64,000 nucleotides of DNA from IMG/VR virus record IMGVR_UViG_3300044840_000109, positions 17,597 to 81,596 of that record, one strand, 5' to 3'. Positions 6,033 to 63,314 of the stretch are shown piece by piece (positions within the stretch are counted from its first letter, which is position 1; each line of letters opens with the position of its first letter). The translations under genes and the position numbers were made by a program. Source of the stretch: a virus. Taxonomy: Duplodnaviria; Caudoviricetes. A model generated the notes under the pieces. That model saw nothing but the letters and a program-made list of their open reading frames with translations. It searched no databases and was not told the origin of the DNA.

Positions 6033-6538
6033 CAGTCGTAGAGGCCCTGCTTGGCGCGCATCTCCTGCTCGGCGACGCTGCGCATGGGGCAGTAGTCACA
6101 CAGGAATCGTTGGGCGGCGGGGTTGGACTTGTCGTATTTCTTCATCCCCGCTTCCCTGCGCTCGGACTGGGTGGGGGGCGTGAGGATCTTCTTGTCCGAG
6201 TGGAAGTCGGCGCAGCGCTCGGGGCGTCCCCGTCCGCGCCAGCACTTCATGGCGTCGGCGCGCAGGGTGTCGACCGCCTGGTAGACCCAGGGTTCGAGCC
6301 CGGTGTGGCCCATGTCCTGCCACATTTTCTGCAGGATCTTTTCCTTGGCCTCGGGGTGGGACCACACGCCCTCGTCCACGATGAACAGTTTTCCCTTGAG
6401 GTGGCGCGACCTGTCGGGGTACTCGTGCTTCTGCAGGGCGTATTCGAGTTCCACGTCGTCGTCGGGGCGGCCCTGGAAATCGGGGAGGGTCTCCGTGCTC
6501 TGGCAGTCCTTGCAGATGAGGATGCGGATGTTAGGCAT
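6032..6538 (-). CDS. Zn-binding hypothetical protein
   Basis: CKDC at the N-terminus, LCDYCP at the C-terminus. Confidence 0.65.
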   Translation of the reverse strand: MPNIRILICKDCQSTETLPDFQGRPDDDVELEYALQKHEYPDRSRHLKGKLFIVDEGVWSHPEAKEKILQKMWQDMGHTGLEPWVYQAVDTLRADAMKCWRGRGRPERCADFHSDKKILTPPTQSERREAGMKKYDKSNPAAQRFLCDYCPMRSVAEQEMRAKQGLYD

Positions 6539-6553
6539 CGTGTTCTGTGTCTC

Positions 6554-7165
6554 CTAATACCATTGGTGGGTCTGCCAGAATTCCCAGGCGCCGCAGGGTG
6601 ATCCATACCGAGCATCCATGTAGGAAATTCCCCATGCGACTTGCGTTGCGCCATTCGTGCGCCAGTCCGCGCCGGCGGAGGACATCTTGGAGCCCGGCAA
6701 TGCCTGGGGAATTCCGTAGGCGCCGGACGGATTCTCCGCGGAGGTGGACCATCCGGATTCGCGGGTGAATATCGCGTCGATGCAGGCGTATTGCGTGGGT
6801 CCGAGGCGCTCCAGGGCGTAGGCGCGGGCGCTACTGCCTCCGATGTAGGTGGAGGCGGCGTGGTAGGTGTGGTGGTGGGCGGGCGCCCTGGTGGGTGCGG
6901 CGCGGGGCATGGCGCGGGTGGTGGGGCGCCTGGTGGGTGCCGGGGCCGGTGCAGGGTGGGTCACTGCGGGCTTCGGCGCGGCGGCGTGGGGCACCAGGTG
7001 CAGCTCGACGGCGGGCGCTGGGTGGGCGAGGGCCGGAGCTGGTGGGGCGGCGTAGGCGATGGGCGCACTGCCCGGCTGCGGGAGGAGCAGGACCCCCCCT
7101 AGGAGGGTGGCGGCGCCGAGTGCGTAGAGGATGGCGTTGGTTTTGTGGGCGGTGCGCGAAGGCAT
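6554..7165 (-). CDS. secreted/anchored lytic transglycosylase (SLT-like)
   Basis: N-terminal TM segment, Pro/Ala linker, IFTRESGW...GAYGIPQALPG...YMDARYGSPCGAW. Confidence 0.85.
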   Translation of the reverse strand: MPSRTAHKTNAILYALGAATLLGGVLLLPQPGSAPIAYAAPPAPALAHPAPAVELHLVPHAAAPKPAVTHPAPAPAPTRRPTTRAMPRAAPTRAPAHHHTYHAASTYIGGSSARAYALERLGPTQYACIDAIFTRESGWSTSAENPSGAYGIPQALPGSKMSSAGADWRTNGATQVAWGISYMDARYGSPCGAWEFWQTHQWY

Positions 7166-17520: not shown

Positions 17521-17876
17521 GGAGTGACCTTCAGCTTTCCGATGTCTACGAGGTGGGCCACGGAGGCGTGGACGGCGGCGGAGGCGATGGCCTGGTAGAG
17601 GCCGAGGTCCTCGGTGCCGTCGTTGTTCCCCGCCATGAAGAGATTGTGTACGACGTTTCCGGCGATGGCTGCCGTCTCGGCGATGTCGGTGGCGATTTCA
17701 CCGACGGCATTGATGCGCCCGTGCGATTCCAGGTGCTCGCGCTCGTCCACGTCGGGTGACGAGGGAGTCAGGTCGAGCGTATGACACCACTCGGGGAATT
17801 GAGGACACGCCACCAGGTCACGCACCATGCCGCGGTACGTGATGAGGCGTCGGTACTCCTGCACGTGCGGCTCCAT
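17517..17876 (-). CDS. hypothetical protein
   Basis: 119-aa ORF after AGGA SD. Confidence 0.65.
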   Translation of the reverse strand: MEPHVQEYRRLITYRGMVRDLVACPQFPEWCHTLDLTPSSPDVDEREHLESHGRINAVGEIATDIAETAAIAGNVVHNLFMAGNNDGTEDLGLYQAIASAAVHASVAHLVDIGKLKVTP

Positions 17877-55690: not shown

Positions 55691-56833
55691 TTAGTTGGTC
55701 GCGCACTGAACGACGGCGTAGTCCGTGATGAGCCCGAGGCCCCAGATCGAATACCATGCCAACGCGTGCTCGCGACCGAAGTCGAGTACGCCGCCATCGC
55801 GAAGCTCGACCGGGAGGGAGATTGCGTGCCCGGCCGCGTTATCTCCGATTACCAGAGCACGGTAAATGCTGTTCACCGGTGCATTCGGGTTCGACGGGAC
55901 CTGGGTGACAGCCGCGTTGGCGGGCACCGGGGAGGCTGCGGTACGCGCCGGCTGGCCGTTCCAGAGCTGGCTGTTGCCAGTCGGAATTCCGGTGCCGAGC
56001 TGAACGGTCGCAGGCGGAGTGGTGACGCCCTGGAAGACCTGGGTCGTTTCAATGAACACCACGTCGTTCAGGCGGCCGATCTCCCCAAGCATAAAGTTCC
56101 CCGGGGCCGCGTACTTCGTGACCTCGATAAACTCGGGGTCGTCGCGGAGGCGACGGCTCTGATGCGGGTGGACAAAAGCGACATATGTCTCACCGAGTCG
56201 CGGGACGTTCTTGGTCGCCAGGGTCTCCACGGCGTCCTTGACCAGGGCGGCAGTGAAGTAGAAGCCCCCGTTGGTGGTCATGGTCGCCTCGGAGTCAGCG
56301 AAGACCCCACGGTCGTACGGGGAGATCGGGGTACGTGCCAGGCCGGCGCCCCAGGTGGCCAGCTTGTCGTAGCCGTAGATGACCGACGGAGCGCCGAGCA
56401 GCACGTCACGGCACTGTCCGTCGAGGTAGGTTGCCATGTTCCTGCCAAGGAGCCTGGCTGCCGACGCCATGACGTCATCGAAGCTGGAGTTGAGAAGCAG
56501 CTCGGTGACGGCGACCGCGAATCCTTGTTCAGCGACCGTAATTGTGATCTGTTCGGCCGTGAGGGCATGGGTTTCCATGCGAACGCCCTCAACGAGCTGC
56601 TGCGCACCATCGAGGCTGCGGTACCGCATGAAGTTTACGGTCAAGCCGGGCGCGGTTCCGAGTTCGGTTTTCTTGACCATGAACTGCTCGAAGCGCAGGA
56701 TTGGCATGGCCTGAAACAAGATTTCCTTGCTCCAGATCGTCTGAATGGCAGGCGTGAGCATCGTGGAGGACGATGCCGCGTATGCCGTCGGCGTGGGGGA
56801 CAGAAGCGGTGTCCCAGTGATGCCACTTGCCAT
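55691..56833 (-). CDS. major capsid protein (N4-gp56-like)
   Basis: IWSKEIL..A.P.LRF.QF, HPHQ...LR.DP, GEIG....V.F.ET, DFGR...AWY..G. Confidence 0.9.
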   Translation of the reverse strand: MASGITGTPLLSPTPTAYAASSSTMLTPAIQTIWSKEILFQAMPILRFEQFMVKKTELGTAPGLTVNFMRYRSLDGAQQLVEGVRMETHALTAEQITITVAEQGFAVAVTELLLNSSFDDVMASAARLLGRNMATYLDGQCRDVLLGAPSVIYGYDKLATWGAGLARTPISPYDRGVFADSEATMTTNGGFYFTAALVKDAVETLATKNVPRLGETYVAFVHPHQSRRLRDDPEFIEVTKYAAPGNFMLGEIGRLNDVVFIETTQVFQGVTTPPATVQLGTGIPTGNSQLWNGQPARTAASPVPANAAVTQVPSNPNAPVNSIYRALVIGDNAAGHAISLPVELRDGGVLDFGREHALAWYSIWGLGLITDYAVVQCATN

Positions 56834-57665: not shown

Positions 57666-59370
57666 TTAGTCCGAGTCTTTGTCCGGATTCCTCAGCTGGG
57701 CGAGTTTTGTGCCCTGCGCGAGAGTCGTGAGTTCGGAAATCATTGATTGGCCGCTTTGTCCGACCTCGACCCCAGGAAGACCTGGGAGAGGGCCGGGATC
57801 CGCGCCTTCCGGACTGTCGCCGGCGCTCGCAGGTGCTGGAGCCTCCACCCCTTCGGGAGGGAGCCCTGTAGCACGGAGAATGGCAGAAGCAATTTGCGCT
57901 TTAATAAAGTCAAGCGCTCCGTCTTCCTTCGCTTCGACAAGCTGCTCATCGAAAATCTCGGCCATTTTCTCGTCGGGAAAGTCGCACCCCAACTCTCGAA
58001 GAGCCCCACGCTTCGACTCCAGGCCGAGCGCGAGCTTCGCCTGAATCTCGTTCAACTTGATGAGCTGATCGATAGGAAGCGGCGGAGGCCAGTCGATATC
58101 CGTCTGGTAGACGCTCGGATCCGACGGGTCGAGAATCAGCGGCTGCTCGTCGCTGGTCTGGATCCCGTCGGTGTCCGGGTTGTACGCCAGCGTCTCGGGC
58201 TCGTAGAGGAAGAGGGTCCGCAGGATCAGCGAATTGATGACGCGCAGGCCGATGCTGTAGTTCGTCTGCTTCAGCGAATACCTTGACATCAATGGCATGT
58301 ACATGATGGACAGGGCAACCCCACTCGTATTCGAGATCGGTTGCATCTGCCCGAGAGCCGTCTCCGGGACGCCCGTCAGCTCATGCATCGCCCGCTTGAT
58401 GAGTTCCAGGTACTGCAGGGGCCCATTGAGGTCGACGCCGTTTTCCAAATTGAAGACATTCGCGTCCTTGGGGAGCCCGCCCCACACTTTCTTGGCTCCA
58501 CGCTCAAGCGACGAAACTTTCGCACCGGTCACGATGGTCAAAGGCGCACTGTGATAATTCACAATGTCGCTGACTTCGGTGCACTTCTCGTTGTACTCGC
58601 GGTTGAGCGGGATCACGTCCACGATGTCCGACAGGCCCCAGGGGGAGCCGGACACGGAGATGTTGCGAATGTGGACGATGGGGATCTCGCCCAGGGGGTT
58701 CACGCGGGCGTCGAGCAGCTCGTCGTTGACGTATTCCTCGATGTAGGAATCTGTGAGGATTTCCGTGTAGGTGTACACGGTCCTGGTCCCCTCCAGCGAG
58801 GTCCCCCAAAACCGGTATTTGATCTTTACACGAAGCAACCTGTCGCGGTCGTGCGGATGGTATTCAGGAAAGACCTGGGCGCCGTTGAGCGGGAGCACGC
58901 GTACGCGGCCCGGGTGGAGGTTCCCGGCACTGTCGTTCCACGCGGCCTCGTAGGCGACCTTGACGAAGCAGTCGCCCGCCACCGAGCCGTTCTCGCCCAT
59001 CTGCCATAGGACGGTTTTCTTGTCGTTGTCGACGGTCCAGACGCGGTCCAGGAGGGCCGGGATGATGTGCTCGTACTTTTTGTCGGTCTGGAAGTTGACG
59101 CCGCGACCGAAAGTGAAGTTGGTGATGTACCGCGAAAGCGCGCCGACGTAGTTGACCGTGATGTTCGGCTCGCCGGCCTCACGCCGATACGCCCAGTGGT
59201 AGCCGAGGTAGAACGCCCATGCGTTCGCGTAGCGGGTCAGGCGGGGACCGTGGACCTCGAATTCATCGAGGTAATTCGTCCGCCAGCTCAACGAGGCCGA
59301 GCGGGCTCACGGAGATAGTGAGGTCGCTGGCTGCAGCGCGCTGCGATGGAGAGACAAAGGCGATCGACAT
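57666..59370 (-). CDS. portal protein, split reading frame (59275..59370 joined to 57666..59261 by proposed translational bypass)
   Basis: Portal-like body (GD.FVKV, PIVHI.N, WG.SD..D.I.LN..YN); AAGGAGGTGA SD before ATG 59370 in a different frame; ORF-track TTG 59291 lacks an SD. Confidence 0.85.
59254..59277 (-). other. candidate UUA-triggered translational bypass site GAA-[TTACCTCGAT]-GAA
   Basis: Matched GAA codons 10 nt apart, TTA right after take-off, in-frame TGA, 7-bp hairpin ACCTCGA/TCGAGGT. Confidence 0.75.
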
Positions 59371-59408
59371 GGCATCACCTCCTTACTGGGACTAGTAGGA
59401 ACCGCGGG

Positions 59409-60598: not shown

Positions 60599-62083
60599 TT
60601 ACCAGAACGCGTGAGTGACCTCGACCTCGGGCATTGTCATTTCTGCGGTGAGCCATAGCGCATTGGAGAGGGAGTCCACGTAGTCGTCGTGAGCGGCTTC
60701 GGTGGTGGGGGCTGCGACGACGATGTGGGGCCCGACATAATTGAGTTCGGCGTCTTCCATCTGCTGGCGGAATTTCTTCCAGTTGCGGGTCTGGCGGGTT
60801 TTCGCGTGCGCCGGCCACACGAGCAGGTTCTTGCTCATGAGGTCGAGCATGTGGCCCCACCTCTTTGTCTGTGCGCCGCGGTCCGACTTGAGGTCCCGGA
60901 TGTCGGCGTAGGGCATCAGCACCTTGAGGCGCGAGGAGACGACATCACCCAGGCCCCCGGCGTCGATGCCGATGGCGTAGACGTTGTAGTGGGAGAGGAA
61001 CTCGACTATGCGGAAGTACTGGGTCTCCCAGTCGGCGCCCTGGAGGTCGAGCCAGTTGAGGACGCGGTGCTCGTAGTTTCCGAATTCGTCCGGGTAGTCC
61101 CAATTGACGAAACAAACCGTGACCACGGTGGAGTCGGTTTTGCGTGCGGGGTCGATGCCGACGATGACCGGGCTCTTGTGGTATTCGCCGACGGTGCGCA
61201 TGCGGGTGTCGCCGAGGGCCTCGAACTTGTCGGAGGTGACGAGCATGCCCTTGTCGAGCATCCAAATGAGCCGGTAGCTCAGCTTGAATTCGTCACTGTC
61301 CTCGCCGAGGCGTTCCATCTCGCTTTTGACGGTCTTGCCGTAGCGGGGGTAGTGCTTCGCGACCTCTTTCCAGGAGACCTCGAAGTGGTTGGTCTTCTTG
61401 CCCGTAGCGCGCTTGTTCTGCTGGATCAGGGCGTAGAAGGCGCTCTTGTTGTACGTGGGCGTACCGGTGAAGCAGATGGTCCCGCCCGTCGCCATCGTCA
61501 TAGGGGCGATCGACTTGTTGATGACCTTGTCGTCTGCGGCCTGGGCTTCATCGATGACGATGAGGTGGTAGGTCTGGCCTTCGATGGCGGCCTTCGGGTG
61601 CGCGGTCTGCTTGCGGATCAAGCTGCCGCACTTCTTGAGCTTGAGGAGTTTTCCGCGGCCTTCGAGGCGGTCATCGATCTCGGGGTCGGCGAGGATTTCC
61701 TGGGCGTGGTCCGAGGTGAGGCGCGAGACGATGCGAGAGAAGAGAGTCTCTGACATTTCGTCCGTGGGCGCGAAGACACCGACCCAGAGTCCGTCGGCGT
61801 ATTTTCCGAGGAGGTCGGGGAAGATTTTCGCCAGGCGCGGCATCATGATCACGAGTCCCGCGACGGTGTTCGCAACCGTCTCGCTCTTGCCGCTCTGGCG
61901 CGCCCAGAGCGCGGTAATTTTGGCGGAGTCCTCGATGATCAGGCTCTCGATCACGCGCTCGGCGAAGGGGCGCTGATAGGGGCGCAGCGGGTGCTCGGAC
62001 AGCTCATCGATGACGAGGATGATCTTCGCGATGATGTCCTTGATCAGCTCGGCCTGAGCCAGGGGCTTCGGGAGGATCTCCAT
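60599..62083 (-). CDS. terL: terminase large subunit
   Basis: RQSGKS Walker A, IVIDEAQ, FTGTP, GIDPA, HDDYVDS. Confidence 0.92.
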   Translation of the reverse strand: MEILPKPLAQAELIKDIIAKIILVIDELSEHPLRPYQRPFAERVIESLIIEDSAKITALWARQSGKSETVANTVAGLVIMMPRLAKIFPDLLGKYADGLWVGVFAPTDEMSETLFSRIVSRLTSDHAQEILADPEIDDRLEGRGKLLKLKKCGSLIRKQTAHPKAAIEGQTYHLIVIDEAQAADDKVINKSIAPMTMATGGTICFTGTPTYNKSAFYALIQQNKRATGKKTNHFEVSWKEVAKHYPRYGKTVKSEMERLGEDSDEFKLSYRLIWMLDKGMLVTSDKFEALGDTRMRTVGEYHKSPVIVGIDPARKTDSTVVTVCFVNWDYPDEFGNYEHRVLNWLDLQGADWETQYFRIVEFLSHYNVYAIGIDAGGLGDVVSSRLKVLMPYADIRDLKSDRGAQTKRWGHMLDLMSKNLLVWPAHAKTRQTRNWKKFRQQMEDAELNYVGPHIVVAAPTTEAAHDDYVDSLSNALWLTAEMTMPEVEVTHAFW

Positions 62084-62177: not shown

Positions 62178-63314
62178 ATGACAGTGACTGAGACCCCCGC
62201 CGTGCCCACCGGGTACGCCTCCCGCAAGGCCCGCCGCAGTGGGGGTCGCCCCGACGTCAAGGACCTCATCGCCTCCTGGGTCGCGCCGATGACGCCCGAG
62301 ACGAATCGCAAGTTCCGCAAGTGGGTGGGCGCGTACGTCCAGTTCCTCGACCAGCTCGCCAAGGTGGACAACCCTGAGGCCACGCTGCACCCAGCCGACG
62401 CCGAGGCCGAGGACTTCGACCAGTTCATGCAGACACTGGCCTCCGTGCACTACGACGACCATCCGGGCGAGTGCATGCGCGGAGTCTGCGACTACATGCC
62501 GATCACCACGATTCAGCGCAAGGACGCACGGATCGCGGTACGCCTCTTCTACGACTTCCTGGTGGAACGGCGCGTCGCGGACTACCAGATCGTCCCGCGC
62601 CTACGTGGACGCCGCGGGACGGGCAACAAAGCGCACGACAAGGAGTTCTTCCTGCCCGAGGAGCTGGGGCGAATCATGCAGTGCGCCCAGGAGTCCAGCC
62701 CTCAGGACGCGCTAATCTGCGGGCTGTTCATCGGCACCGGCATGCGCCCCGCAGAGCAGCATCTCCTCAACGTCGACCAGTTCGGACGGAACCAGTACGC
62801 GCGGACGTTGAAATTCCTGCGTGTCAAGAAGGGGGAGGAGCCCTACTGGCAGACAATCTCTCTGGGGAGCCTCCTCTCGCCCATCATCGACGCCTGGACC
62901 GACGGGCGTACGTCCGGACCGCTGATCATCTCCACCGGGCGGCGCACCCGGAACCCTGAGACGAATCTCCTGGAGCACACCAGGTTGGACCCGTCGGGAG
63001 TCCGGCGCCGCGTGCAGCGAATCTGTGCGGATGCCGGCGTGCACTCCGAGGCGAACCCCTACATGTTCCGCGACACGTACGGAACACTGAACGTCACGCT
63101 GACCAGCCCCTGGGAGAAACCGGGCGAGAAGGATGCGGAGGGTAAGCAGCTCGTCCGCCCTGCACGCACCAGCCTCGCCCGAATCAAGGTCGCCATGGCG
63201 CACAAGCACGTGAACACAACCATGATCTACTACAACGAGCACGGCCTGGCGCGCCGCGGGGCCATCGGTCATCAGGTCATCCGCTGGTGCCATGACTGGC
63301 GCATCGGCCTGTAG
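62178..63314 (+). CDS. tyrosine recombinase/integrase
   Basis: TGMRPAE (R), VKKG (K), YMFRDT (HxxR variant), MAH....TMIY (H/Y). Confidence 0.88.
   Translation: MTVTETPAVPTGYASRKARRSGGRPDVKDLIASWVAPMTPETNRKFRKWVGAYVQFLDQLAKVDNPEATLHPADAEAEDFDQFMQTLASVHYDDHPGECMRGVCDYMPITTIQRKDARIAVRLFYDFLVERRVADYQIVPRLRGRRGTGNKAHDKEFFLPEELGRIMQCAQESSPQDALICGLFIGTGMRPAEQHLLNVDQFGRNQYARTLKFLRVKKGEEPYWQTISLGSLLSPIIDAWTDGRTSGPLIISTGRRTRNPETNLLEHTRLDPSGVRRRVQRICADAGVHSEANPYMFRDTYGTLNVTLTSPWEKPGEKDAEGKQLVRPARTSLARIKVAMAHKHVNTTMIYYNEHGLARRGAIGHQVIRWCHDWRIGL

Follow-up and report, generated by a model that had tools for sequence, protein, structure and literature searches.

The subject of this report is the portal gene of a tailed virus (Caudoviricetes), which lies on the minus strand of a 64,000-nucleotide stretch of IMG/VR virus record IMGVR_UViG_3300044840_000109 (positions 17,597 to 81,596 of the record; hereafter the window) and is split over two reading frames by a block of 10 nucleotides (nt). 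The strong Shine-Dalgarno sequence AAGGAGGTGA (59375..59384, minus strand, as are all portal gene coordinates below) stands 4 nt before the start codon, ATG 59370-59368. This opens a leader of 32 codons (59275..59370; MSIAF...SPLGLVELADE), which reads MSIAFVSPSQRAAASDLTISVSPLGLVELADE and ends with GAC followed by GAA (59277-59275). The 10-nt block TTACCTCGAT (59265..59274) comes next. It begins with TTA in the frame of the leader (59274-59272), goes on with CCT and CGA, and has GAT as its last three bases (59267-59265). Still in the leader frame, TGA (59263..59265) closes an open reading frame (ORF) of 35 codons. A second GAA (59262..59264), 10 nt after the first, opens the portal body, EFEVHGPRL... 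to the C-terminus (57666..59264; 532 codons and a stop), in the +1 frame relative to the leader.

The body is contained in a 541-codon ORF (59291-57666), which matches the Pfam family PF05133 (SPP1_portal) with 82.1 bits (gathering cutoff 25.5; E 5e-23). It is 55-61% identical to the portals of the BRock group of Streptomyces phages (Alone3, BRock, pSt2308) and 77-82% identical to portals of Streptomyces prophages. Gene callers place the portal start at TTG 59291, the sole upstream start in the body frame, which lacks a ribosome-binding site; Shine-Dalgarno sequences of the type GGAGGTGAT also precede the ATG of homologous portal genes. A first-pass annotation of the window, made from the sequence alone, had described the Shine-Dalgarno sequence, ATG 59370 and a 35-residue ORF running through TTA-CCT-CGA-TGA, and had placed the portal body in the +1 frame. 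Direct reading and the Pfam match confirm all of these.

Uninterrupted homologs reveal how the two parts belong together. The portals of Alone3, BRock and pSt2308 start 32 codons before their match to the window's body ORF and read ...SPLGLVELSDEEFEMHGPRL... unbroken; the window's leader is collinear with residues 1-32 of such portals. In these three and in more than 80 further homologs ADEEFEV is contiguous and the 10 nt are absent, and nearly all full-length portals (about 568 residues) among 120 close members of the family, which numbers roughly 3,600, have SPLGLVELADEEFEVHGPRLNRY. The junction falls within the most conserved N-terminal motif of the family, the near-invariant SPLGLVELADEEFEVHGPRL. 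In the window this region is laid out as GAC GAA, then TTACCTCGAT, then GAA TTC GAG GTC, and excision of precisely 10 nt (59274-59265) yields D-E-E-F-E-V. Since removal of exactly this block restores the motif, the leader is part of the portal, and the body has been displaced by a TTA-led insert. The expectation that homologs would carry the 32-residue leader contiguous with the body is thereby borne out; the junction they show is ADE-EFEVHG, not the ADE-FEVHG originally predicted. Compared with relatives, the leader has 14-24 nucleotide differences in 87 nt (29 codons), with 12-19 synonymous vs 1-3 non-synonymous codon changes; by this comparison, it is under purifying selection. An AlphaFold2 model of a full-length homolog (P0007) gives residues 1-39 a predicted local distance difference test score (pLDDT) below 50 and is uninformative on the packing of the leader or on a one-residue deletion.

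Comparable gaps occur in the portal genes of many relatives. They were sought in the DNA of homologs annotated as short, in three collections scanned for LVEL[AS]DE followed by TTA, and in 80 IMG/VR portal loci screened for frame breaks. The 80 loci came from a ranking by score, in which intact genes have an advantage, and gapped loci were chosen by pattern or truncated annotation, so no gap frequency can be derived from these numbers. There are 21 distinct portal gap types at no fewer than seven sites, of which 14 are led by TTA, one by AGA and six by a stop codon. In the 17 gaps found without demanding TTA, the first zero-frame codon is TTA (10), AGA (1) or a stop (6), and no other codon. 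Total insert lengths are 4, 5, 6, 7, 8, 10, 18, 19, 22 and 25 nt, covering all three classes modulo 3, and in every case skipping the insert gives collinearity with intact homologs. Eleven of the 21 types have, just ahead of the resume point, a codon that the take-off tRNA could also read, either the take-off codon itself or a synonym; these cognate take-off/landing pairs are GAG/GAG (three), GAA/GAA (two), CAC/CAC, CUU/CUC, UAU/UAC (two) and CGA/CGC (two). A near-cognate GAY after a Glu take-off codon is found in the window and in loci L011 and L025, the latter without a GAR alternative. The design rule across the family is a take-off codon X, a slow codon, 1-19 nt, a landing codon X' and resumption. 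Gaps of this class are present in many independent assemblies, including the complete Streptomyces chromosomes CP108259.1 and CP109479.1.

After ADE, where the window has its gap, the relatives carry several variants (written here as take-off codon, gap, continuation). The variant GAG-TTACC-GAG GAA is shared by L012, L015, L017, L023 and L112 (these include Streptomyces sp. NPDC026672, S. mangrovi and S. sp. HMX87), with GAG-TTACC-GGG GAA in Kitasatospora sp. NPDC052896. Others are GAG-TTACGTG-GAA (L004), GAG-TTAT-GAG GAG (L016, S. sp. NPDC051840) and GAG-TTAA-GAG GAA (L013), the last with a TAA stop in the +1 frame of the gap. Longer inserts at this site are the 19-nt GAA-TTACGCCTCATCACCTCCT-GAA GAG (L005 type) and the 18-nt GAG-TTACATCCGTAACTCGAC-GAA (L011), which contains a TAA. 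The 19-nt gap of the metagenomic relative L005 (3003-3024; also in L007-L010, L108, L109 and L118) holds ATCACCTCCT, which resembles the 3' end of 16S ribosomal RNA (rRNA) and complements the Shine-Dalgarno GGAGGTGAT of the same gene, which lies some 100 nt upstream; it could mask that ribosome-binding site or join in the bypass.

Elsewhere in the gene, gaps read CTT-TTAA-CTC (L024, S. sp. NBC_00055, CP108259.1), CTT-TTAC-CTC (L119, Actinomadura atramentaria, KB907208.1), GAA-TTACC-GAC GTC (L025, S. sp. NBC_01451, CP109479.1), GAA-TTAT-GAA GTT (L028) and, after WAFY, TAT-T-TAC CTG (L006 and L029). Some relatives need two hops. Second sites are CAC-TTAG-CAC TGG in HMX87 (L023), CGA-TTAGC-CTG in NPDC051840, CGA-TTACCCCTCGGGGTGATCAAAC-CGC TTG (22 nt, minus strand, near residue 175) in the prophage of Kitasatospora sp. 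NPDC052896 (L014), and CGA-AGACC-CGC TTG in A. atramentaria (L119, 1450-1500), which is led by the rare Arg codon AGA. The two inserts of L119 (7 and 8 nt) add up to 15 nt, and the frame returns. In the second gap of L014 the Shine-Dalgarno-like GGGGTGATC stands four bases ahead of the landing codon, recalling the Shine-Dalgarno-like element proposed for phage phiHau3 and for T4 gene 60. The stop-led gaps follow the same design, with TAA in L052, TAG in L055 and L120, TGA and TAG at the two sites of L077, and TGA at the second site of L011. The lowest G+C contents (57-59%) belong to the stop-led L055, L077 and L120; in the portal gene of L055 TTA is an ordinary Leu codon, although a crude stop-to-stop count of TTA is otherwise too noisy. 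A pattern scan of metagenomes gave nothing beyond repeats of two known gap types and chance in-frame matches in AT-rich genomes, and the matches from Actinomarina, Rhodobacteraceae and Proteobacteria were rejected as such chance matches.

Taken with the homologs, these gaps indicate that the window's portal gene probably has a coding gap of the type known from the phiHau3 terminase gene, crossed by UUA-triggered translational bypassing. This was the central idea of the first-pass annotation, and the comparison with relatives supports it strongly, while favouring another landing codon. In outline, ribosomes would start at ATG 59370, make the 32-residue leader and then pause: peptidyl-tRNA(Glu) would occupy the P site, on GAA, and the A site would hold the candidate slow codon, the very rare UUA. 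Decoding of UUA would rely on a host tRNA, as the whole 81.6-kb record was searched for tRNA genes and has none; in Streptomyces this would be the bldA tRNA-Leu(UAA). During the pause, the peptidyl-tRNA would release GAA and the mRNA would slide. If UUA were decoded instead, translation would terminate at UGA after 35 residues.

Two landing codons can be considered, and both are in the portal frame. Landing on GAU (two of three pairs), with resumption at the following GAA, would give ...LVELADEEFEVHG..., a collinear portal of 564 residues with the junction ...SPLGLVELADEEFEVHGPR. Landing on the next GAA itself (three of three pairs) would give 563 residues and the junction ...LADEFEVHGPR. The latter hop is the one first proposed; it is feasible, but loses one residue of a near-invariant motif. 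The GAU landing is favoured because homologs read ADE-EFEVHG and because a near-cognate GAY after Glu recurs in L011 and L025. A 5-nt direct repeat also brackets the gap, as GAATT-ACCTCGAT-GAATT (59262-59279). A 13-nt slippage deletion between the repeats would mend the frame in the DNA, and its product, ADE-FEV, would equal that of the GAA-to-GAA hop.

Several features of the relatives bear on the mechanism. No one type of frameshift can account for the family, because the inserts span all three classes modulo 3 and the +1 frame of L013 contains a stop; a frame set by the landing codon would suit all insert lengths. Those codon pairs that are synonymous and not identical point to selection on tRNA pairing rather than to duplication of a DNA target site. 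An internal start cannot rescue the protein, since some relatives need two hops and gaps lie as far in as about residue 175. Two inserted nucleotides and one G-to-T substitution would turn the TTACC+GAG cassette of the relatives into the window's gap, which may have arisen in this way; if the gap is bypassed, neither step would do harm, because the frame depends on the landing codon and not on the gap length.

Some observations weigh against bypassing in the window. The GAU codon matches the take-off tRNA at only two of three positions, while the cognate GAA costs a residue of the motif. The exact 10-nt gap was sought in IMG/VR with 0 matches, which makes this variant a singleton, and it could be what is left of a TTACC+GAG cassette after decay in a prophage that has lost virion production. 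A look-up of the window's portal ORF on other contigs likewise gave no record. Eight gaps at the window's site came from a pattern that demanded TTA and are unusable for statistics. In addition, published bypass efficiencies for phiHau3 are very low.

A rival view is that the 10 nt are an inactivating indel, either a plain mutation or a decayed hop cassette, in a provirus without a functional portal, so that only the 35-residue peptide or nothing useful would be made. The integrase gene of the phage suits this view, as a resident prophage may be free to decay, and so do the singleton gap and the imperfect GAU. It is nevertheless unlikely. The insert begins in frame with TTA, a codon absent from the other confident genes of the window; it has the 7+3 geometry of the phiHau3 gaps and the TTACC start of the relatives' cassette; and the two candidate landing codons close by both lie in the portal frame. 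The adjoining structural genes are intact, and the leader does not show decay. An assembly or sequencing artefact in this record, which the lack of the exact gap in any other record might suggest, is highly improbable. A non-repetitive insertion of 10 nt is atypical of sequencing errors, the independent assemblies mentioned above contain gaps of the same class, and in the protein collection the 541-residue ORF of the window is represented by two member sequences on a 112-kb contig.

A +1 frameshift at a hungry UUA would be a different way of joining the same frames. Tyr-tRNA would read the overlapping UAC, to give ...LADE-YLD-EFEVHG..., a protein of 567 residues with the junction ...LADEYLDEFEVHGPR. 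The +1 frame is open across the window's gap and UAC is available in 10 of the 14 TTA-led portal gaps (those that start with TTAC); the authors of the phiHau3 work were at first unable to exclude +1 events (PMC10732093). This route is very unlikely all the same, as it puts three extra residues inside the near-invariant motif, tRNA(Glu) in the P site has no way of pairing with AAU at +1, and relatives with 8-nt inserts (L012 type) or a +1-frame stop (L013) could not use it. In phiHau3, moreover, a +1-frame stop placed in the gap left recoding unreduced (PMC10732093). The gene might also be split, with the 35-residue peptide and an N-terminally truncated portal made separately from TTG 59291 or by re-initiation. 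This agrees with the annotated 541-residue ORF and with the AUGA overlap that closes the 35-residue ORF (59263-59266), in which an AUG (59266-59264) overlaps the UGA stop. Such an arrangement is scarcely credible: TTG 59291 lacks a ribosome-binding site, gapped relatives differ in where their first body-frame start codon lies, and a split near residue 175, where relatives also have gaps, would destroy the conserved body. Re-initiation at AUGA was rejected, as its AUG is in the third frame, not that of the portal, and opens an ORF of 8 sense codons only.

The first-pass annotation also noted a hairpin at the gap. It is a real 7-base-pair structure, ACCUCGA (59272-59266), loop UGAAU, UCGAGGU (59260-59254), that begins at the third base of UUA (59254..59272 in all), but it is not a family feature. 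As the minimum-energy fold of a 41-nt stretch it has -16.3 kcal/mol, accounts for 87% of the ensemble and has a z-score of -3.1; three of 200 shuffled sequences were as stable. Its 3' arm is native coding sequence (F-E-V), and the complementarity is therefore a property of the insert. The gap of L011 has its own hairpin, GAGUUAC/GUAACUC. None was found in the 4-5-nt gaps of relatives, and a hairpin is thus not generally required. Over the 45 nt before take-off the mean folding energy is -16.5 kcal/mol in gapped vs -10.8 kcal/mol in the remaining genes, a comparison that is confounded by G+C content and phylogeny and that vanishes against intact close relatives.

Programmed translational bypassing is among the rarest known modes of gene reading. 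The closest precedent is the large terminase gene of phiHau3, with two 10-nt UUA-containing gaps; prophage terminases of StrepC.1 and S. catenulae have 7-nt gaps (Smith et al. 2013, cited in Antonov et al. 2023, RNA Biol 20:926, PMC10732093). For phiHau3, a full-length product in Streptomyces has been reported, and a junction peptide was found by mass spectrometry in E. coli with UUA replaced by UAA (PMC10732093). The stop- and AGA-led portal gaps match the interchangeability of slow codons that has been published. The precedent, which the first-pass annotation had named, is real, and in the phiHau3 DNA its gaps read GGC-TTACTCC-GGT AAG and TCT-TTAACGG-TCC ACG, in each case 7 nt of gap and then a synonymous landing codon of 3 nt. 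The window resembles them in the in-frame UUA directly after the last collinear codon, in the 10-nt block absent from homologs and in the division of this block into 7 nt (TTACCTC) and a 3-nt candidate landing codon (GAT). In both cases, too, the phage is a high-G+C actinophage, the protein acts in head assembly at low copy number, and there is a hairpin close by. The differences are that the gene is a portal and not a terminase gene, from a BRock-like portal family rather than the R4-like lineage, and that the near-cognate GAU is followed by a cognate GAA, whereas the phiHau3 landings are synonymous (GGC/GGU, UCU/UCC). Independent gaps are far more numerous in the portal family than in the published terminase series of four, and they are spread over more sites.

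Similarities to other bypass systems are more limited. As in T4 gene 60, one peptidyl-tRNA would serve for take-off and landing, a slow A-site codon follows the take-off codon, and a hairpin starts from the A-site codon; the window differs in the size of the gap (10 vs 50 nt), in its slow codon (a rare sense codon vs UAG) and in the lack of sequence homology. For the nascent-peptide signal and the 5' stem-loop that promote take-off in T4, no counterpart could be demonstrated, given the confounded comparison of upstream folding. For E. coli, Weiss et al. (1987) and Gallant and Lindsley (1998) reportedly described short hops at codons that were hungry or were stops. There, as proposed here, starvation of the A-site codon lets the peptidyl-tRNA pair again, a few bases further downstream, with a cognate or near-cognate codon, which would explain the 4-5-nt gaps of relatives; those hops were engineered or accidental, whereas here the gene concerned is essential and the arrangement is found repeatedly in different lineages. 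The mitochondrial byp elements of Magnusiomyces capitatus are 27-55 nt long, G+C-rich and mobile (Lang et al. 2014, cited in PMC10732093). Like the portal gaps, they are short, non-coding and numerous, interrupt coding sequences more than once in the same gene, and have a landing codon that matches the take-off codon; unlike that of byps, the mobility of portal cassettes is only suggested, by the same cassette at different sites.

Turnover of the gaps was followed in a FastTree tree of 97 loci, with the N-terminal 80 columns removed and with biased sampling. L006, at 82% identity the closest relative of the window, is intact at the ADE-EFEV site but gapped after WAFY, and L012, gapped at the window's site, is sister to L029, gapped after WAFY. 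The cassettes TTACC+GAN, TTAT+GAR and TTAA+X each recur at different sites. Because near-sister portals are gapped at different places and the same cassette turns up at different sites, the data suggest that gaps are gained, lost or moved fast relative to protein divergence, by some DNA-level mechanism. A more speculative idea, put forward here with considerable doubt, is that the cassettes serve actinophage portal genes as a regulatory device, mobile or generated again and again, which throttles portal supply and ties it to the charging of one host tRNA.

In streptomycetes, UUA is read by the bldA tRNA alone, and a portal is needed at just 12 copies per virion. For a protein of such low copy number, a low-yield bypass might be tolerable or even set the stoichiometry. 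The reading of UUA by bldA is reviewed in PMC10732093, together with the published hypothesis that in phiHau3 scarce bldA tRNA leads to more bypassing and hence to terminase synthesis. By analogy, this hypothesis would transfer directly to the portal described here and might link its synthesis to the growth phase of the host. In the form that the first-pass annotation gave it, a hungry UUA would yield portal, whereas charged bldA tRNA would yield the 35-residue peptide and no virions.

In the full-text literature searched, there is no case of portal bypassing, and the UUA bypassing described there amounts to four gaps, spread over three terminase genes, on limited experimental evidence; the nearest further mention is a speculation on the primase genes 50/51 of Bxb1 (PMC12646305). 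If bypassing holds for the portal, the phenomenon would extend to another essential head gene and could be called general instead of anecdotal. The portal series adds comparative evidence beyond one case, namely three frame classes, tRNA-matched landings and interchangeable slow codons (UUA, AGA, stops). Should the cassettes be hop sites, this natural series (cognate and near-cognate landings, 1-22 nt, with and without hairpins or Shine-Dalgarno-like elements) would yield rules of short-range bypassing, and its variants would be a ready-made set of mutants for reporter assays in wild-type vs bldA-mutant Streptomyces. There is also a consequence for annotation, as gene callers render such portals N-terminally truncated or as two ORFs.

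The virus record as a whole has 81.6 kb and 65.8% G+C. Around the portal gene the head module is intact (Pfam, PHROGs), and the neighbouring morphogenesis genes are syntenic with those of relatives. Upstream of the portal lie the large terminase gene (60599-62083) and then two small genes, for which Pfam and PHROGs gave no homing endonuclease or other named function; downstream are a gene of 260 codons in the scaffold position and the major capsid protein gene (55691-56833). A divergent tyrosine integrase gene (62178-63314, plus strand; PF00589, phrog_216) adjoins the large terminase gene, and the phage is for this reason likely to be temperate. The portals closest to that of the window are found in Streptomyces and Kitasatospora genomes.

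Outside the portal gene, no in-frame TTA occurs in the confident genes of the window (crude gene calls, with 98 ORFs and about 23,500 codons for the record). The statement that the portal TTA is the only one in the phage genes stands for these, but upstream of the window (record 6410-6664, plus strand) an ORF of 84 codons with high G+C at third codon positions has an in-frame TTA at codon 72 and an unbroken frame. It is a possible second bldA-dependent phage gene.

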